64,000 bases of DNA from Escherichia phage CMS-2020a: the sequence record CP054387.1. One strand, written 5' to 3'. The notes beneath the pieces were generated by a model. The model was not told the DNA's origin, searched no databases, and saw only the letters and a list, made by a program, of their open reading frames with translations. This document shows, piece by piece, positions 1-63,679 of this stretch (its first letter is position 1; each line of letters starts with the position of its first letter). Position numbers and translations under genes: made by a program.

Positions 1-282
1 CGTCTGAAACCACCCAAAAGCAGATCCACCGCTTCCTCGCGGAACAGGGGTAATGCGGATTTTGGCAATGTTGTCAGACTGCCCCATCATCTGATATTCA
101 CTCTCGTCCACAGACCACTTGTGGCCCTGTTTATTGGTGATCTGGATGTGGTATCTGTCATAGGTTTTGATATTGCGCTTCATCCATGCTTTAAAACCAG
201 GCTTATTGGCCTCAATTAAATCCAGAGCCTGTTTTGTATTGCGCACCTTTAGATGCCAGTGGCGGCCAAAATGTTTGGCCAT
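1..282 (-). CDS. tail assembly protein I-like, truncated by the window edge
   Basis: Minus-strand frame open from ATG at 282 to position 1 (MAKHFGRHWHLKVRN...IRITPVPRGSGGSAF); lies directly downstream of the K-like gene in lambda order M-L-K-I. Confidence 0.45.
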   Translation of the reverse strand, partial: MAKHFGRHWHLKVRNTKQALDLIEANKPGFKAWMKRNIKTYDRYHIQITNKQGHKWSVDESEYQMMGQSDNIAKIRITPVPRGSGGSAFGWFQT

Positions 283-14456: not shown

Positions 14457-15713
14457 CTATCGAGAACCACCAAGAATAACACGGTTTTTGACTGGATACC
14501 TACGATGTACTGGATAGCCCAATGCGTCTGCACTATGCTCAATGCCACCTGTCTTATCCATATCTCGTGTTCCAGGCTTGTAGATGACTTTTTCCAGTGA
14601 ATCAATCAAATGCTTGCACTTCGGATCGATATACAGCCGGATATCTCCAGATGCGGACATCAGCATTCGGTTAACAGCATTAACACGATCCGCAATTGGC
14701 GGGTGCTTTTTCGAATAATCGACACGTAAGAATCCCTTCTCTTTGAATATGTCTACGTCAGACTCCCCACGAGCATGTTGGCGATAAGCACCTGCCGGAT
14801 CTGGAAATACCGTTACCTGTGATTTCCAGCGCCAGAAGCGTCTCTCAAGCTCATCACAAACTTCTGCCGTGTTAGAGGAAAAGAGCACCAATTCATCAAT
14901 TGCCCATAGCTCACCATTTGGCTGAGGTTGCAAAATTACTGAAGACATCGGGTCAATGTTGAAGTCCTGCCCTACCCATATAGGCAACCGAGGGTTGAAC
15001 TGAAGCGGTTTTACATGCACGTTACGATCGAACGGGTAGTAAACGCGCCCGGACATGTTCTCAAAGCTGGCCAGGTACTCCTGAGCGAACGATTTGGGGT
15101 CCATATCGTTCTTAGCAGCTTCAATTTCCGCCGTAGGTACAAACGGAGAATCGGCAGTTACAAACTGCCAGCTCTTCCACTGTCCCTTTCTTTGCAGCTC
15201 TACGTTCTGGCCTATAGTCCACAGTTTGTGAAATTCCGAGAAGCCTTTTGGCGTACCAATGATCAGTGCACCGCCGCGTGTCGATGAAAGAGTAGGTCGT
15301 AACACCTTGTACCAGGTGTCAGCCTTCATATCCTGAAATTCATCAAGCACTACAAAATGCAACGCTACGCCGCGCAGAGTGTCAGGCTTATCAGCACCTT
15401 TGAGGGCGATCTCCGAACCGTTCTTCAACACGATTGTCATCGTGGTGTCGTTCTTTTTCCTAACCCACTTACGAGGCAGAACTTCCTGTAGATCGTCCCA
15501 CAAAATCTGGCGAGCCATCTGGTAAGTAGGAGCGACATACCAGACCCTTTGCTTTTTTTCCTTTGCCGCCGCACGAATAATAGTGGAGATCGACAACCGG
15601 GATTTTCCCCAGCGTCGACCAGCACAAACAACTTTAAATCGATGCGGAGACTGGAAGACTTTCATCTGTCCAGAATGCAGTTGCACAAGACTGAGCGAGG
15701 ACGGGATTGCCAT
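14457..15713 (-). CDS. terminase large subunit
   Basis: Walker A VVCAGRRWGKS, Walker B HFVVLDEFQD, C-terminal nuclease-like acidic motifs. Confidence 0.75.
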   Translation of the reverse strand: MAIPSSLSLVQLHSGQMKVFQSPHRFKVVCAGRRWGKSRLSISTIIRAAAKEKKQRVWYVAPTYQMARQILWDDLQEVLPRKWVRKKNDTTMTIVLKNGSEIALKGADKPDTLRGVALHFVVLDEFQDMKADTWYKVLRPTLSSTRGGALIIGTPKGFSEFHKLWTIGQNVELQRKGQWKSWQFVTADSPFVPTAEIEAAKNDMDPKSFAQEYLASFENMSGRVYYPFDRNVHVKPLQFNPRLPIWVGQDFNIDPMSSVILQPQPNGELWAIDELVLFSSNTAEVCDELERRFWRWKSQVTVFPDPAGAYRQHARGESDVDIFKEKGFLRVDYSKKHPPIADRVNAVNRMLMSASGDIRLYIDPKCKHLIDSLEKVIYKPGTRDMDKTGGIEHSADALGYPVHRRYPVKNRVILGGSR

Positions 15714-16345
15714 TATTTGTCCTCCCCTTCACTTCCATCATCTGTCGCATCAAATTCGCTTAGAGCTTCTTCTTCCAACGTCTCAAGCAATTCGTCATCG
15801 ATGATTTCAGGCTCGTCGTCTTCCTGACGTAATTTCGCCACCTGGGAAGGCGTAAGCTCACCAAATACCAGGTTCGGAATTTCTTCCTCGTCATTTTCCG
15901 CATGATCCATGCCCAATGCTTTGGACGAAACTTCAAAGCATTTTGCAAGGGTATTACTGGCTCTCTGTAAGCTCTTGAGAGAATCCTCAATCGCCCCTAA
16001 AGGCTTACCCTCACGTTTGGCCGTAGTGACTTCGACCATCACCATCTGCCCCAACGCATACGCCCAGCCGTCATAACGTGTACGACGTTCTTCTATCTTT
16101 TCCGCACGGGCTTTAGCGCGAAGCTCTGCGTCAGATTTAAGAGACTCACGAACCATCTTCCCAACAGAGTCCGCGCCTTTCTCTAATCCTCGCTTTTTGA
16201 AATGTCTGGAGAGTGTTTCACGACGAATGCCGTACTCTTCCTCCAGCTTTGAGAGTGTATATTCGCCTGACGTCCATTTGGCTTCAGCTTCGGCCCACTC
16301 CGCTGGTGTCAGGCGAGTTTTTACCTCGTCTTTTTCGACCGTCAT
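15713..16345 (-). CDS. terminase small subunit (putative)
   Basis: 210 aa, N-terminal HTH-like region, very acidic C-terminus, stop overlaps large terminase start. Confidence 0.5.
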   Translation of the reverse strand: MTVEKDEVKTRLTPAEWAEAEAKWTSGEYTLSKLEEEYGIRRETLSRHFKKRGLEKGADSVGKMVRESLKSDAELRAKARAEKIEERRTRYDGWAYALGQMVMVEVTTAKREGKPLGAIEDSLKSLQRASNTLAKCFEVSSKALGMDHAENDEEEIPNLVFGELTPSQVAKLRQEDDEPEIIDDELLETLEEEALSEFDATDDGSEGEDK

Positions 16346-16440
16346 AGATCCCTCTAAAACACACAGAGCGCGTCCATGCGCTCTAAAACAACTTGTTTAC
16401 TGCATCTGCTAACCAACTTGTTTTCTGGGGTGTTTAATTA

Positions 16441-16532
16441 GGTCTGGCATGTCTTACGAAGCCTGCTTCCGTATATATTTAATAAGTTACTTATTATTTA
16501 TATATACAGATGCAGGTCTTTAAATAAGCTCC
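16441..16532. repeat. large imperfect palindrome (GCCTGCTTCCGTATAT, AT-rich core, ATATACAGATGCAGG)
   Basis: Inverted arms at 16461-16477 and 16501-16518 with outer GGTCTGG/CCAGACC; second copy at 47951-48040. Confidence 0.5.
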
Positions 16533-16540
16533 CAGACCGA

Positions 16541-16807
16541 TTACATCACCAGTAACTTCGCTTTGGCTCGACCTAAAGTGGTTAACCCAAGAGTTCGGCG
16601 GTGATAGCGATTGTCACTGCGTTGGCGCGTATGCCCTTTCTCCACCAGCCCCTTTTTTATCAGAGCGCGAATTGAGAACTGGATACTTTGCTTGGTTGTC
16701 TTGTACGGCAAAACTTCAAGCAATTCGTCCAGGTCAAGTAGATGACCTCGCTCATAACCGAGATTGAGCGTTTTGATGATGTCCTTTTGTTTATCGGTTA
16801 ACGTCAT
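16541..16807 (-). CDS. small DNA-binding protein (winged-helix-like, putative)
   Basis: 88-aa basic ORF. Confidence 0.35.
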   Translation of the reverse strand: MTLTDKQKDIIKTLNLGYERGHLLDLDELLEVLPYKTTKQSIQFSIRALIKKGLVEKGHTRQRSDNRYHRRTLGLTTLGRAKAKLLVM

Positions 16808-16816
16808 GGCAAATCC

Positions 16817-17707
16817 TTATGCCGGTAAAGCAATTTCTAACGGTTTATCCAAAGGTTGTTTGTCGAATGCCAGCAATGGCAGCGTGTCAGGCAGTCGACG
16901 ACCAAAGTCAGGGTTTCGATACACACCATACAACGGAGACGTAAAGCTCAGGTTGTGAATGTCCTTGAGCAGCTTCACAATGCTGGCCTCGTCCACCAGA
17001 CTGTCGGCAATGTCCTGAATCGTCGTGCCACGATTCCGCCCAGCTTTTGCCAGGGAACTGTTCTTGTGGTAGTCCGCCACCAGATCACGCAGTGCACGGC
17101 GACGACGAGACTCGCTCATTGCGAACAACTCTTTGACGATCGCCTCGTTATCACCCGTGTCGGAACGGAAATGGCGCTGGAATACACGCAGTGCACTTTC
17201 ATAGCTCTTCGGTCGCTCAGGGCGGATGAACTTAAACCCTGCTTTCATGGCGAAGGGATTGTATTTGCTCATCGAGGACTGGATCTCAATGATTGGCCGG
17301 TCATGCATCCTGCTAACCAGGTTAATCATTCGATAAGAGACGCCTACGCCACGATACTGAGTATCCACAACTGAGCGACTGATCACCGCAAAGTTGTTAT
17401 TCACGTACCGACCCCAGTACTGGTTAGCCACGGTGGTATTAGTGGTTGGTTTCAACTTAGGAAACATGCGGTGGCGAGGTGCCAACAGTAGTTTCGGGTA
17501 AGCCATAACCACGACGCCCACCAGACGATCATCAAGTTCGCAGCGATAGTAAGTTGGCGCGAAAGGTTTGCCGTCTGTTTTGTAGTGAAGCGACTTAAGA
17601 GCGTGCCAGTCCTCTACAGTTCCCTTTGTAACAGTCATTCGCTCCAGAAAGTCCAGATGACGCGGAAACTCTTCAGGGCGGTAGCGTTTAATGATGATGT
17701 CCGTCAT
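16817..17707 (-). CDS. hypothetical protein (296 aa), fourth gene of the ParB/ABC operon
   Basis: Translationally coupled to the ABC ATPase gene (ATGA overlap at 17704-17707); weak GNAT-like YRGVGVS motif only. Confidence 0.5.
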   Translation of the reverse strand: MTDIIIKRYRPEEFPRHLDFLERMTVTKGTVEDWHALKSLHYKTDGKPFAPTYYRCELDDRLVGVVVMAYPKLLLAPRHRMFPKLKPTTNTTVANQYWGRYVNNNFAVISRSVVDTQYRGVGVSYRMINLVSRMHDRPIIEIQSSMSKYNPFAMKAGFKFIRPERPKSYESALRVFQRHFRSDTGDNEAIVKELFAMSESRRRRALRDLVADYHKNSSLAKAGRNRGTTIQDIADSLVDEASIVKLLKDIHNLSFTSPLYGVYRNPDFGRRLPDTLPLLAFDKQPLDKPLEIALPA

Positions 17708-18369
17708 AAATGGACCTCATCATGACTACCATTGTGATATTCCACCTTCACGCGTTCTTTGTAGTGCTTGGTGATCTGCATATCCGGGCGCAGCGCGTTC
17801 TTCAGGTCTTCGTGAGTCGTCGCCACCATTACCGTCGCACCAACCTTTCGAGCGGCACGCTGGAGGTTAGATGCCACAACCTGAGCGGTTACACGGTCTA
17901 GAACAGCACCGAACTCGTCAGCAGCCCACACTTTAGCGCCTGACTCAATCAGTTTGGCAATCTTGAGACGATATTTCTGGCCGTCTGACATTTCAGAAGG
18001 CTTGCGAACAAACAGATATGCATCGTTCAGACCAGCCATAGATAACAACCCAAGCGCATCGCTGGTCGTTTTGCCCAACTGATCGATGACGTTAACCTCA
18101 TTATCGAAGGTAAAATCATCGATGGAGGCTACAGACAGCCCTTCATCCTTCATCTGTCGTTGCAACTCGCGCAGCACAACGGATTTGCCGGAACCGGATT
18201 GGCCGGTGATGTACACCACATCGCCCTGCTTCACTTCCAGCTCCAGATTGTCGTAAAGCGTCCACTCTTTTTCGTCCAGGCCAAGCCCGAACGACTCAGC
18301 GATTTCCAACGTGCGCGTGGTTTTATTTACGCGTGTCTGAAACGATACGTTGATGTTGTATTTGCTCAT
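17704..18369 (-). CDS. stand-alone ABC-type ATPase
   Basis: Walker A GQSGSGKS, ABC signature MSDGQKYRL, Walker B VWAADEFG, H-loop ATTHE. Confidence 0.7.
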   Translation of the reverse strand: MSKYNINVSFQTRVNKTTRTLEIAESFGLGLDEKEWTLYDNLELEVKQGDVVYITGQSGSGKSVVLRELQRQMKDEGLSVASIDDFTFDNEVNVIDQLGKTTSDALGLLSMAGLNDAYLFVRKPSEMSDGQKYRLKIAKLIESGAKVWAADEFGAVLDRVTAQVVASNLQRAARKVGATVMVATTHEDLKNALRPDMQITKHYKERVKVEYHNGSHDEVHL

Positions 18370-19034
18370 GCAGCCATCTCCCCGGAAGAGATCTTCTCCG
18401 CATATGCCACAAATGCGTCTACCCCGCTTTCTCCCGTCATTTCTTCCATATGGGCAAGCAAATCACCAACAACAATGGCAGAGCCAGCAGGGAGAGTTTT
18501 AAAGCCCAATACGTCGACAACACGTACTTCTTCCGCTGCAACTTCACGACTGATCTCGGTGTGTTCATCCTTCTGTCGTTTAGTTTCTTCGCTAAGATCG
18601 ATAACTAGCGAGTCGGTGTCCATTTCTTCTGTCATACTGCCAACGAGAACATTCAACTCACGCTCTTCAAAGCCGAAAACCTCGATATCGTCCAGAACAA
18701 GCGACTCAAGCTCTTTCTGTAGCTTAATTGCATCGTAATCAATGCTGGCAAGTCGGTTATCTTCAAGGCGCTTCGCACGAACCTCGTCATCACTGAGATC
18801 ATCGCGAACAATAACCGGTACACGCTCAAGTCCAGCAAAAATTGCAGCCTCACGGCGGCCGTGGCCAGTAATAATTACGTCGTTCTTATCGACCGTAATT
18901 GGCTGGTCAAATCCGCGCTTTTTAATGGCTGCGGCCAGATCTCTGATCTGCTGTTCATCATGCTTTTTGGCATTCATCTCATAGGGAATAAGATCTGCCG
19001 GGTCGCGATATACGATTTCAAACTTTTTGGTCAT
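18366..19034 (-). CDS. ParB-like nuclease domain protein
   Basis: ParB N-terminal domain pattern (ITGHGRREAAIFAGLERVPVIV); start at ATG 19034 with AAGGAG RBS. Confidence 0.6.
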   Translation of the reverse strand: MTKKFEIVYRDPADLIPYEMNAKKHDEQQIRDLAAAIKKRGFDQPITVDKNDVIITGHGRREAAIFAGLERVPVIVRDDLSDDEVRAKRLEDNRLASIDYDAIKLQKELESLVLDDIEVFGFEERELNVLVGSMTEEMDTDSLVIDLSEETKRQKDEHTEISREVAAEEVRVVDVLGFKTLPAGSAIVVGDLLAHMEEMTGESGVDAFVAYAEKISSGEMAA

Positions 19035-19732
19035 TACATACGCTCCTTGTAGTAGTCGACCAGCCACACTAGAGCCTCACCAGCGTTTTCCATTTCATTG
19101 CCAGTATTAATTGCCTGGTCTTTGATGATGTTTTTTATGGTTTCTGCAACGCGATCTGACGCATCGAAGGTTACTTTGAAGCGCATGGTCTGATGTTCCG
19201 CACCGACACGTTCGGTTTTCTCTCGTTTGTCGGTATCGACAGGCTCATCACTACCACGAGACAACGCCTCCAGTGCTTCAAGGTCGATTGCCGCCTCTTT
19301 TGCTAAAACCATCGAGATTTCGTCGTCATACGGGGCGATTTCAGACAGTTGATAGTCAAGTTCTGACTGAATTTCTTCAATGAAGCGTTGCAATGCGATT
19401 TGGTCGTCTTCACCGTATCGCTCGTTGTCCACCAGTGACATCTGTTTTGCCACGACATCGCTAATTTTGCCCACAGAAAGCACAGGAACCGTTGAAATTC
19501 CTTGCTCAATAGCAGCACGCCAGCGATGTTCGCCGCCGAGGATTTCAAAAAATCCATCTTCAAGCTCACGAGCCAAAATTGGCTTAAAAAAGCCCAATTT
19601 TTCGATAGAACCTTTCAGTTTTTCGAAATTCTGCGCACCAACCGAATTGGTGTTCCAGGTATTCGGGCGAAGGTTGGCAACATCAACCTGCAAAATCGTG
19701 ATTTTTACGTCCATTTTATTGCTACAATCCAC
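19034..19732 (-). CDS. ParB-like nuclease domain protein
   Basis: ParB motif GGEHRWRAA; first gene of the four-gene operon; start uncertain (19732 or 19714). Confidence 0.6.
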   Translation of the reverse strand: MDCSNKMDVKITILQVDVANLRPNTWNTNSVGAQNFEKLKGSIEKLGFFKPILARELEDGFFEILGGEHRWRAAIEQGISTVPVLSVGKISDVVAKQMSLVDNERYGEDDQIALQRFIEEIQSELDYQLSEIAPYDDEISMVLAKEAAIDLEALEALSRGSDEPVDTDKREKTERVGAEHQTMRFKVTFDASDRVAETIKNIIKDQAINTGNEMENAGEALVWLVDYYKERM

Positions 19733-19796
19733 TAAGTAATCACTTACTTATTATAATAGCCAAATAACATACAAAAGGCACTAAGGAAAGAGGTTT

Positions 19797-21356
19797 ATGA
19801 CTGTTCGGATTGTATCTAACGCAGTAAATGCGCTTATTTCTGGCGCAGATGACAAGGTAAAGCAACTGGTGCAGCAAATGTTGAGCTACGAAGTCGAGGC
19901 TGGCGACTGGAAGGGCACAAGCACAATGTTCAACTGGAGCAAAAACTCGTTCCCTGCTGGCTTTGCCAAGCCCGTGGCGGCTAATTTGAACAAGGCGGGC
20001 ATCAAATGTGTTCATATCCGCAAAGACAAAGCCCCGGCGCTTGGTAAACCAAATCCGGCGGTTAACCCATTCCCATACAATCCTGATTATGCGTATCAGG
20101 ATCAGACTGTGGAAACACTGGTTCGAGAGGGAATGATGATTGCGCAGATCGCTACTGGTGGCGGGAAATCTAACGTTGCCTGCAAAGCAGCTGCACGTAT
20201 CGGTCGAATGACATTATTTTTAACAACCCGCTCTGTTCTGATGTTTCAAATGGCCGAAAACTTCCAGAGATCCATCGACTACCGCGCCGAAAATGGCGAA
20301 CCGTGGTTAAAGGGCCAAAAGGTTGGAGTCATTGGCTCGGGTGAGTTCCAGGTATCACGACATATCAACGTCGCTACAGTTCAAACTCTGGCAAGTTTCC
20401 TTGAAGAACCACCACGCGATGCAACACCAGATAAAAAGAGCTACCACCTCAAACGTCGGGAGTTGGTGAAACGCTTCCTTTCAAGTGTGTCTCTGCTTAT
20501 TCTGGAAGAAGCGCATGAGTCTTCAGGCTCTAATTTCTATGACATTGCTAGATTATGTGTGAACGCAGACTATCGTCTGGCGCTTACAGCCACGCCGTTC
20601 ATGAAGGATTCGACGGAAGCCAACATGCGCCTGATGGCGATGGCCGGGCGAATTGAAATTAAAGTCACAGAAAAGTATCTGATTGATCGAGGCATTCTGG
20701 CAAAGCCGTACTTCCTTTATCATAAAGTTGCCTACAAGCCAGACGAGGCCAGAATCAAGGCCGAACTTGCCAACAAACACCTCAATTTTAGAGTTGGTAT
20801 GAGCACCGCCTACCAAAAGGCTTATCAGTTGGGGATCGTGTATAATTTGGGACGTAACGAGGCCATTGTGCGCGAAGCATTGCTCTATAAGCAACATTCT
20901 CTCAATTGCATGACTCTGGTTCGTCTTAAACGCCACGGGCAAATCCTGATGGAGATGATGAAGGAGTCCGGCCTTATAGTTGACTTCATCTATGGGGAAT
21001 CGAACCAGGCGACAAGGCAAGCAAAGCTGAACAGTTTAGCGTCTGGCGAAATAGATGTTTTAATAGGCTCGACTATTCTGGATGTCGGTGTTGATGTGCC
21101 AAGCGTTGGTGCGGTCATTCTGGCTGGTGGTGGGAAAGCAGAAGTTGAAATGAGACAGCGTGTCGGTCGTGGCTTACGAGCCAAGAAGAATCAGGCAAAC
21201 GTGTGTTTTATCACTGATTTCATTGACATTAGCAACAAATACCTGTTGTCTCACTCTTATGAGCGAAAACACATCATCGACACCACACCTGGCTTTGCAG
21301 AAGGTGTATTGCCTGTTGATGGCGCATTCGATTTTGGAGTTCTGAAACGAGATTAG
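19797..21356 (+). CDS. superfamily 2 DNA helicase (DEAH-box)
   Basis: Walker A ATGGGKS, motif II ILEEAHES, C-terminal helicase domain; RBS AAGGAAAGAGG. Confidence 0.7.
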   Translation: MTVRIVSNAVNALISGADDKVKQLVQQMLSYEVEAGDWKGTSTMFNWSKNSFPAGFAKPVAANLNKAGIKCVHIRKDKAPALGKPNPAVNPFPYNPDYAYQDQTVETLVREGMMIAQIATGGGKSNVACKAAARIGRMTLFLTTRSVLMFQMAENFQRSIDYRAENGEPWLKGQKVGVIGSGEFQVSRHINVATVQTLASFLEEPPRDATPDKKSYHLKRRELVKRFLSSVSLLILEEAHESSGSNFYDIARLCVNADYRLALTATPFMKDSTEANMRLMAMAGRIEIKVTEKYLIDRGILAKPYFLYHKVAYKPDEARIKAELANKHLNFRVGMSTAYQKAYQLGIVYNLGRNEAIVREALLYKQHSLNCMTLVRLKRHGQILMEMMKESGLIVDFIYGESNQATRQAKLNSLASGEIDVLIGSTILDVGVDVPSVGAVILAGGGKAEVEMRQRVGRGLRAKKNQANVCFITDFIDISNKYLLSHSYERKHIIDTTPGFAEGVLPVDGAFDFGVLKRD

Positions 21357-63034: not shown

Positions 63035-63679
63035 TTACAGCGCGTCAGTGGGCTTTTTACGCGCTGCGTTTATGCTTATGACGCCAGCTTTTGGACGTGG
63101 GTCAACAAGGTTAAGCTCTTCTTCGCTGTGGTATTCGAGGTCGAACTCACGTTTTACATGTCTGATGTAGATTGCGGTGAGCAGGCTATCTTTGGTCAGA
63201 AAGTGTCCGTAGGATTTGCGGATCACTTCTTCTACCTTCTCGATTTTCTCACCACCCATACAGAGATGATTAAACCGGCTGTGTTTCCGCAACATTTCGT
63301 CTACTGGGCCTGAGTAAACCTTGTCTACTTTCCCAAAACGGATGATTTTTCCTGTGTCTGCGGATACGAGGCAAATCAGCTTGTCTGGTGATAAACGATC
63401 TCGCCACGTCACACCTGAACGGAGTGTGTTGAAGTAGGGGGCATCCAATCCGATGATCGGTTTACGAAATGCGAGTAATGGAACGTACCTGATGCAACTG
63501 TTTAAATGAAAATTCACACCAGCCTTATCAAGTTTAATTCTGGTTTCGTAGATCGGGCACTTCGCCGCTATACCGCAGATGTCACAAAGCAACTTCTGCT
63601 TATTCAGGTTGGAATTTGATTCGATAGTGTAGGAGCCGTCTTCAAGACGACGAACCCAGCGCGTGCGTTTTAGATCCAT
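63035..63679 (-). CDS. hypothetical protein
   Basis: 214-aa ORF with CDICG...C cysteine pattern, adjacent to the origin-like region. Confidence 0.4.
   Translation of the reverse strand: MDLKRTRWVRRLEDGSYTIESNSNLNKQKLLCDICGIAAKCPIYETRIKLDKAGVNFHLNSCIRYVPLLAFRKPIIGLDAPYFNTLRSGVTWRDRLSPDKLICLVSADTGKIIRFGKVDKVYSGPVDEMLRKHSRFNHLCMGGEKIEKVEEVIRKSYGHFLTKDSLLTAIYIRHVKREFDLEYHSEEELNLVDPRPKAGVISINAARKKPTDAL

Follow-up and report, generated by a model that had tools for sequence, protein, structure and literature searches.

The 64,000-nt stretch of Escherichia phage CMS-2020a DNA analysed here (sequence record CP054387.1; hereinafter designated the window) can be assigned to the SSU5-type phage-plasmids because of the identity of the region to Escherichia phage PhiR41_1 (99.3%), Cyrano (98.9%), Salmonella phage SSU5 (85%) and Klebsiella SSU5-like phage-plasmids (81%). 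Close to its terminase genes lies a minus-strand module encoding two ParB-like proteins (ParB1 and ParB2), a stand-alone ABC-type ATPase, a 296-aa protein with a predicted GNAT fold and a small basic protein of 88 aa (Table 1). The module belongs to a family, combining an ABC ATPase with a GNAT domain, that has already been computationally predicted to modify DNA, here in a split form accompanied by ParB-like proteins.

The four open reading frames named in an earlier reading of this DNA (the original prediction) are all present where it placed them, all on the minus strand, and reading the reverse strand bears out the overlapping stop and start codons it described at three junctions: ParB1 and ParB2 meet in a TAATG in which stop and start share one base (1-nt overlap at 19034), and ATGA overlaps of 4 nt join ParB2 to the ATPase gene (18366-18369) and the ATPase gene to the GNAT gene (17704-17707). 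The start of ParB1 is ambiguous between GTG at 19732 and ATG at 19714, because database versions of the protein span 226-234 aa; relatives are annotated from ATG. The unit does not end at four genes, as had been supposed, since the 88-aa gene begins 9 nt past the GNAT stop codon, nor is it directly upstream of the terminase genes, as a 195-nt gap (16346-16540) stands between the 88-aa gene and terS. On its other side, the module is flanked by a divergently transcribed UvsW-like helicase gene, a conserved left-hand neighbour. A simple scan of the 19715-19796 gap found no sigma-70-type promoter for the module, and neither a paralogue of the ATPase nor a third ParB was found within the window at E < 1e-3. 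All five members belong to populated PHROG families (723, 930, 293, 886 and 900) and all five genes are under strong purifying selection, with dN/dS values of 0.013-0.062 in comparisons with SSU5 and Klebsiella phage pJN2-26. Constraint is strongest on the genes for the ATPase and the 296-aa protein, with 98% amino-acid against 89-90% nucleotide identity to SSU5; measured against that phage, the two co-evolve at the same very low rate.

Table 1. Coordinates of the module, its surroundings and related features (window positions unless a locus is named).
Feature	Position	Strand	Remarks
ParB1 (ParB-like 1)	19034..19732 from GTG, or 19034..19714 from ATG	-	226 aa from ATG
ParB2 (ParB-like 2)	18366..19034	-	222 aa
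ABC-type ATPase, stand-alone	17704..18369	-	221 aa
ATPase motifs	residues 56-63, 128-131, 147-152, 184-187		Walker A GQSGSGKS; signature SDGQ; Walker B VWAADE; H-loop TTHE
GNAT-fold acyltransferase-like protein (predicted)	16817..17707	-	296 aa
Small basic protein, fifth gene	16541..16807	-	88 aa, probably winged helix-turn-helix
Imperfect palindrome, 55 nt	16462-16516, centre 16488		arms CCTGCTTCCGTATATATTTAATAAGT / ACTTATTATTTATATATACAGATGCAGG, inverted repeats I1 and I2
Dispersed near-palindromic motif AACAAGTTGKTT, two copies	16386-16398, 16411-16422		upstream of terS
Motif AACAAGTTGKTT, other sites	21372, 26602, 27366, 28268, 28754, 30289, 31174, 31225, 35163, 44826, 45555, 55773
Terminator-like hairpin	16364..16385	-	8-bp stem, 5 G-C pairs, then TGTGTTTT
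terS-like DNA-binding protein	15713..16345	-	210 aa; phrog_867 3.7e-100; terminase small subunit in the Cyrano annotation
Large terminase (TerL)	14457..15713	-	418 aa; Pfam Terminase_6N 3.1e-09
UvsW-like DEAD/DEAH helicase	19797..21356	+	519 aa; Pfam ResIII, DEAD, Helicase_C
Methionyl-tRNA synthetase (metG), full-length	31322..33484	-	back to back with the Mrp/ApbC-like gene
Mrp/ApbC-like P-loop ATPase	33513..34613	+
Junction insert SSU5_128	L260 1235-1489		84 aa
Junction insert pJN226_0053	L261 4798-5349		183 aa
Junction insert nickie gp156	L003 5646-5981
Junction inserts, Rhizobium phages	L004 5043-5898		three genes including a DUF2829 gene

The complete set of ATPase motifs described in the original prediction could be located in the 221-aa protein, whose best Pfam match is ABC_tran (5.6e-13) and whose gene evolves at a dN/dS of 0.02-0.03 relative to SSU5 and pJN2-26. 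The Pfam match, and the PHROG 'ABC transporter' labels attached to the ATPase and, wrongly, to the 296-aa protein, would speak for the transporter function given in most GenBank and PHROG annotations. We find that function scarcely credible: no membrane-spanning partner is encoded in the operon or within the 12.8-24 kb region around the locus, the supposed second ATP-binding subunit has no P-loop and a predicted GNAT fold, and the partner domain of this ATPase family is a GNAT. The label 'ABC transporter ATP-binding subunit' is nevertheless carried by the GNAT protein in GenBank records of relatives.

The 296-aa protein has no sequence match in Pfam, NCBIfam, PADLOC or PDB, yet it belongs to the well-populated phrog_886, and a word-indexed protein search returned 341 homologues. 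An AlphaFold2 model built from a 40-homologue alignment (pLDDT 87.1, pTM 0.79) predicts a GNAT alpha/beta fold over approximately residues 1-165, in keeping with an earlier guess that the protein is GNAT-like, followed by a helical, basic C-terminal region of ~130 residues; both halves are basic (pI 9.3-10.0). In GNAT enzymes, motif A (R/Q-x-x-G-x-G/A) binds the pyrophosphate of acyl-CoA. The candidate CoA-binding motif here is R119-G-V-G122-V-S124, in which R119 and G122 are invariant among the 40 homologues, as are the other members of a polar block comprising H41, Y42, K43, R78, H79, D115, E141, S144 and S147. These residues and motif A fit a predicted enzyme rather than a scaffold.

Searched against PDB with Foldseek, the GNAT model finds TmcA and NAT10 at the top (2zpa, 9j3c and 9aym), as well as RimI and Naa enzymes, whereas Mom is its best match among viral structure models (11-12% identity); all of these matches are at the superfamily level, with 6-16% identity. 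TmcA and NAT10 likewise couple an NTPase to a GNAT and acylate a nucleobase (RNA cytidine N4), but their substrate is RNA and their ATPase is of the helicase type and resides in the same chain, fused N-terminal to the GNAT domain. The window pair does not share that architecture: its ATPase is ABC-type and the match is limited to the GNAT core (TM ~0.34, 8-10% identity). Mom of phage Mu, the only GNAT known to act on double-stranded DNA, is a GNAT-fold DNA adenine carbamoylmethylase that modifies it using Gly-tRNA-Gly (PMC13219725), as a single enzyme with neither an ATPase nor a ParB partner; the window protein has the additional C-terminal region, resembles Mom in fold only and is placed in the Mom family by no Pfam, NCBIfam or PDB sequence match. 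The second match among the viral models is an 'aspartate 1-decarboxylase', and in phage Jace a gene of similar annotation, gp87 'aspartate decarboxylase' (L252 6125-6550), lies directly behind ParB (gp85) and ABC-GNAT (gp86). Such proteins possibly hint at the group transferred, or may be misannotated GNAT relatives.

The 296-aa protein had been regarded as lacking a clear family; its relatives place it as the C-terminal half of an ABC-GNAT fusion family. A profile search of 1.84 billion representatives returned 886 relatives, many of them 450-560 aa long with the GNAT part at approximately residues 200-480 (E 1e-27 to 1e-15), and an ABC_tran domain lies upstream of the GNAT part in all 10 fused proteins scanned. 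In phmmer comparisons, the window ATPase matches the N-terminal half of the fused reading frames (E 1e-46 to 1e-63) and the window GNAT protein matches single fused reading frames (E 1e-10 to 1e-19). The window sequences and 30 aligned fused proteins have in common the ATPase motifs AFGLG..DE (before the P-loop), LSDGQKYR, DEF..LDR..A and ATTH and the GNAT motifs FHY[KR], RG.G, E..A.M..YNPF and Y..W.NP; the fused counterpart of motif A is RGIGLG, with R337 and G340 invariant. The window contains both parts of the family, ABC then GNAT across the 4-nt overlap, and because its remote homologues are single-chain ABC-GNAT fusions, we take the two genes, on homology, to be the N- and C-terminal halves of a split enzyme. 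JGI labels both window-type proteins 'ABC-type ATPase with predicted acetyltransferase domain', and the fused family appears in JGI/IMG and in some GenBank records as an ABC-type ATPase fused to, or with, a predicted acetyltransferase domain. We take this family to be COG2401.

Where relatives have two genes, the ATPase/GNAT junction is a hot spot at which small accessory genes are inserted (Table 1); elsewhere the gene is single and fused, and in the window and Cyrano the junction has no insert. One fused homologue (P0284, 847 aa) contains an intein with a LAGLIDADG homing endonuclease in its ATPase domain, near Walker B.

Iyer et al. (Viruses 2021, PMC7824862) have independently predicted that a 'GNAT coupled with an ABC ATPase' acylates a DNA base, naming Tenacibaculum phage pT24 as an example. 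Our fused query matches two 'ABC transporter' genes of that phage. For the prediction they cite a 2013 article in NAR by Iyer, Zhang, Burroughs and Aravind (gkt573). The predicted system and the window pair share the same domains in the same order, with both halves homologous, and both are phage-borne; the window differs in dividing the enzyme between two translationally coupled genes, with a pair of paralogous ParB-fold genes ahead of them and a gene for a probable winged helix-turn-helix protein behind them.

The module as a whole is widely conserved. A tblastn search with the 296-aa protein found matches in 30 cultured-phage records, comprising the SSU5 group and ~105-122-kb phages of Pseudomonas (nickie and relatives), Rhizobium (RHEph10 and the RHph series), Stenotrophomonas and Xanthomonas. 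Gene order is identical in nickie, RHph_N1_15 and BUCTxx99, running from the divergent helicase through ParB, ParB, ABC, GNAT and the small protein to the terS-like gene, TerL, portal and on to the major capsid protein. The carriers include virulent genera (Nickievirus) and other non-plasmid phages.

Beyond these records, we collected 80 genome loci and 80 viral contigs (L172-L251) with an alignment of the fused family (A2), which reached diverse loci; another alignment (A1), used as locus query, kept only loci of at least 80% identity. Neighbours were called on raw open reading frames with jackhmmer profiles seeded from the window proteins, and absences are therefore soft. The 80 proteins of the viral contigs fall into 21 clusters at 70% identity (4 at 50%) and represent mainly one broad lineage; 61 of these 80 contigs have TerL on the same strand immediately upstream of the fused gene, often overlapping it, and 3 more have it just downstream. 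The fused gene ends less than 400 nt from the contig end in 28 of the 80, and the TerL/ABC-GNAT pair seems to stand at the genome or provirus terminus in this lineage. In one locus (L006), the fused gene is the last phage gene before host genes. Among the genome contigs, Planctomycetota metagenome-assembled genomes have the order ABC, GNAT, ParB, TerL (L105, L107, L117 and L121), L108 and L109 have ABC, GNAT, ParB, and ParB is adjacent in L100, L106 and L112; the fused gene also occurs in contigs of Bathyarchaeia and Nitrososphaeria. The genome of Gordonia phage NHagos starts with ParB, ABC-GNAT, gp3, terminase and portal, and Jace has ParB and ABC-GNAT in the same order. In other lineages, the neighbours of the fused gene are DNA pol III alpha or, elsewhere, family-B DNA polymerase (PolB) and RecA, and a 1260-aa PolB-ABC-GNAT fusion (P0324), which we read on 24 contigs, ENA and JGI samples among them, and which the index lists in 35 collection blocks, is encoded within a Prim-Pol/RecA/RNA ligase/SbcC-like replication module on metagenomic phage contigs (L257, L258 6001-9783). 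Phage DNA is the common denominator of the terminase, ParB and DNA polymerase contexts.

The fifth gene is preceded by AAGGA and is syntenic in most relatives (nickie, BUCTxx99 and SSU5-like loci). Its product (pI 10.2; phrog_900, 1.9e-45) is annotated in Cyrano as 'DNA binding domain containing protein' and has weak NCBIfam matches to Sta1/Lrs14 helix-turn-helix regulators (E 0.0025-0.004, below the cut-off); it is probably a winged helix-turn-helix protein. Three kinds of element occupy the 195-nt gap that follows: the 55-nt palindrome, a pair of dispersed-motif copies and the terminator-like hairpin. Inside the palindrome, at positions equivalent to 16480 and 16479 of the window, lie the starts of the GenBank records of SSU5 and Cyrano, respectively. 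The palindrome could be a pac or cos site, a protein-binding site or an RNA hairpin, and the shared record start may be a mere annotation convention. The dispersed motif AACAAGTTGKTT, with the core AAACAA[G/C]TTGTTT, has 22 strand matches (~13 sites) in the window against 1.04 expected, a level reached in none of 100 shuffles. Its sites are mostly intergenic, within ~60 nt upstream of minus-strand genes, and it is probably an operator or promoter element of a phage regulator; the equivalent gap in phage nickie (L003 7215-7254) carries ACAAGTTGTTAA / TTAACTACTTGTTTT. The hairpin ends 19 nt before the terS ATG and is suggestive of a terminator, although hairpins overall are not enriched in the scan (5 found, 4.2 expected from shuffles). 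Because this hairpin and the two motif copies stand before terS, and the window motif scan found no copy upstream of ParB1, the module is apparently transcribed separately from terS.

The terminase linkage raises the alternative that the module is a packaging accessory, assisting or regulating the terminase with DNA chemistry unchanged, either by marking or organizing the concatemer at the packaging start or by acetylating TerS, TerL or portal. The TerL counts in the viral contigs, the placing of the module immediately ahead of terS-terL-portal throughout the ~110-kb clade, the gene order of NHagos and the palindrome between the module and terS are all consistent with such a role. We nonetheless consider it unlikely: elsewhere the enzyme sits in replication modules (pol III alpha, PolB, RecA) or is fused to PolB, at a distance from any terminase within the stretch seen, the gap with its hairpin and motif copies separates the module from terS, and we know of no terminase system that needs a GNAT. 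Proximity to packaging genes does not discriminate between the two roles, because late DNA-modification genes such as mom of phage Mu also act late in infection.

Less likely again is host takeover or anti-defence through acetylation of protein or RNA (tRNA, ribosomal proteins, RNA polymerase or a defence protein), with the ATPase remodelling the substrate as in TmcA and NAT10. The RNA cytidine acetyltransferases, RimI and the Naa enzymes among the top PDB matches would agree with this, as would the anti-defence-type small genes inserted in the modules of relatives, such as the DUF2829 gene of the Rhizobium phages; acetylation of host proteins by phage GNATs has a precedent in enzymes such as phiKMV Rac (cited in PMC7824862). 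The structural similarity, however, is that of a superfamily, the ATPase is not the helicase-type module of TmcA, and the recurrent partners, namely ParB-fold proteins, terminase and DNA polymerase, the last even in covalent fusion, point to DNA.

Both ParB-like proteins match Pfam ParB_N (ParB1 3.4e-13, ParB2 1.3e-08), and the motifs by which they had been recognized are present, GGEHRWRAA in ParB1 and GHGRREAAIF (given earlier as HGRREAAIF) in ParB2. ParB1 (phrog_723, 2.7e-79; dN/dS 0.05-0.06 against SSU5 and pJN2-26) has the box II sequence GEHRWRA, one substitution from the canonical GERRxRA, and its N-terminal domain aligns with Spo0J (1vz0) and ParB (6t1f), the Spo0J alignment being weak past residue ~105. 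The box II of ParB2 (GHGRREA) is divergent with its arginines kept. ParB2 matches phrog_930 (3.2e-112) and, over its N-terminal part, phrog_498 'DNA methyltransferase' (1.1e-31), as well as the PADLOC profile MTase_II (PDLC03229, 2.2e-17); in both cases it resembles the ParB part of ParB-methyltransferase fusions, which are enriched in phages and prophage regions (PMC12704722), but has no methyltransferase domain itself. GenBank records of relatives still label it 'DNA modification methylase' or 'DNA methyltransferase'; the PhiR41_1 label is a transfer from the ParB part only, and misannotations propagate through records PV340561.1, NC_018843.1 and NC_042091.1. The two proteins are paralogous across 116 aa only (33% identity, E 5e-10). 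The homologues listed for ParB1 and for the ATPase, 120 proteins each, are all close relatives of at least 85% identity.

The presence of two ParB_N domains, with the near-canonical box II of ParB1 and its likeness to the N-terminal CTPase-fold domain of ParABS systems, might suggest a partition cassette in which the ParB-like proteins bind a centromere and the ABC ATPase serves as motor; a phage-plasmid must segregate, and many database records call ParB1 'chromosome partitioning protein ParB'. Such a role is very unlikely because non-plasmid phages carry the whole module (nickie, the Rhizobium RHph phages and BUCTxx99) and Cyrano annotates a separate ParA gene ~29 kb from it, outside the window. 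No adjacent ParA-type ATPase with a deviant Walker A was found, the ATPase of the module being ABC-type with a classical Walker A and only a weak CbiA/ParA match (E 0.0023, below the cut-off), and no parS was identified. The TIGR00180 (parB_part) scores of 43.2 and 43.3 fall short of the cut-off of 58.45, and both proteins are acidic (pI 4.5) with no helix-turn-helix DNA-binding domain that could be shown by alignment. The original prediction was thus right that this is not a standard partition cassette.

A different role for the ParB-like proteins is suggested by analogy. Phage ParB homologues are proven activators of phage DNA-modifying enzymes, the thymidine dioxygenases: in the 5mYOX systems, an adjacent phage ParB with no obvious DNA-binding domain is required to activate the enzyme (PNAS 2026, PMC13229309). 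The window likewise places ParB-fold genes beside a putative DNA-modifying enzyme, although 5mYOX is an Fe/2OG dioxygenase rather than a GNAT, has one ParB rather than two and has no ABC ATPase. The ParB-CTPase fold binds CTP, ATP or GTP, and in phages it is often fused to methyltransferases, with an acetyltransferase fusion in a bacterial case (PMC12704722).

We favour, tentatively and at a little short of even confidence, the reading of the locus as a phage DNA-modification module in which a split ABC-GNAT core carries out ATP-dependent acylation of a DNA base. The links to TerL, ParB and polymerases in several independent lineages count for this reading; so do Mom and TmcA/NAT10 as the best viral and PDB matches, and the shared low evolutionary rate of the ABC and GNAT sequences is a further indication. 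Gene structure, folds and motifs, fusions, conserved neighbourhoods and purifying selection are observations; the DNA substrate, the chemistry, the roles of ATP and ParB, the biological benefit and every mechanistic step beyond formation of an ATPase-GNAT complex are what we infer. The ATPase and GNAT proteins would form a complex, in which the ATPase may dimerise on ATP in the usual manner of ABC ATPases and, through its cycle, clamp, hold or open the DNA, while the basic GNAT subunit would transfer an acyl group to a base, most plausibly to an exocyclic amine, from acyl-CoA or, as in Mom, from an aminoacyl-tRNA. ParB1 and ParB2 could be NTP-binding cofactors that activate or target the enzyme, comparable to the activators of the phage thymidine dioxygenases, and the 88-aa protein might add DNA binding or regulation. 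Phage DNA would receive the mark once replicated, ahead of packaging or in the course of it, and the mark would protect or label the genome in the next host. More tentatively still, the product may be an undescribed acyl- or aminoacyl-derived base mark, made by a split ATP-dependent ABC/GNAT enzyme that two ParB-fold NTP switches gate, and timed to replication and packaging.

Several findings weigh against base acylation. We found no literature report of a modified base in SSU5-like, Nickievirus or related phages, and likewise no experiments on the ABC-GNAT family. Among neighbours, TerL and not other modification genes shows the tightest link, which fits packaging equally well. ParB is apparently not obligatory for the ABC-GNAT enzyme, because none was detectable with our home-made profiles, a soft absence, near the fused gene in any of the 80 viral contigs. 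The acidity of ParB1 and ParB2 and the lack of a demonstrable DNA-binding domain in them count here as well, and the AlphaFold2 model of ParB1 (pLDDT 38.6), made from a shallow alignment of 10 sequences of at least 85% identity, is unusable. The probability left over from the readings discussed is assigned to functions not considered.

Other candidates for a part in the pathway were set aside. The methionyl-tRNA synthetase was rejected as a supplier of an aminoacyl-tRNA donor; metG adjoins the mrp/apbC-like gene, as it does on the chromosome of E. coli, and is thus probably host-derived cargo and not a feature of the clade. Among ASCH domains are N4-acyl-cytosine amidohydrolases and proteins predicted to read modified bases. 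A 214-aa protein (63035-63679, minus strand), annotated 'ASCH RNA-binding domain' in Cyrano, was considered as a protein that might read or erase N4-acyl-cytosine; sequence searches of Pfam and PDB gave no support for the annotation, and beyond the SSU5 group the protein has weak matches in two Pseudomonas (Nickievirus-group) phages only. A paper on wheat-phyllosphere phages with DNA modifications does not deal with this clade.

Seen as a whole, the original prediction held up in dismissing partition, in its GNAT guess and in naming DNA modification, but gave way on the number of genes, the terminase adjacency and the module being unrecognizable. Of the three functions it offered, DNA modification is best supported, and packaging and anti-defence stand as rivals. 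The module consists of populated PHROG families, and the ABC-GNAT pair at its core had already been predicted to acylate a DNA base (PMC7824862). Co-occurrence of the genes outside this genome, whose absence had been named beforehand as refuting the idea of a module, proved wide, and no homology of all four proteins to a characterised partition or packaging system emerged, because no characterised system exists. New here are the fifth gene, the relationship of the split genes to the fused one, the connection with the ParB-activator precedent and the quantified linkage to terminase, ParB and polymerase, of which the 2013 NAR account may already cover the ParB and terminase parts.

The labels 'ABC transporter', 'ParB partition protein' and 'DNA modification methylase' in current records are misleading for the genes of this module. 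Inducible lysogens of E. coli K-12 exist, as do virulent relatives, which makes the system easy to test. If base acylation is correct, Mom would be joined by a second GNAT-type DNA modification pathway, the first that depends on an ABC ATPase; it would present a new enzymology, in which an ABC ATPase drives a GNAT on DNA with ParB-fold cofactors, and would widen the newly found part that ParB homologues play in activating DNA-modifying enzymes. The pathway would be spread over the clinically common SSU5/pHCM2-type phage-plasmids of Salmonella, E. coli and Klebsiella and over many tailed viruses of bacteria and archaea, which would then carry a new DNA mark affecting restriction evasion, host range and the appearance of their genomes in native-DNA sequencing.

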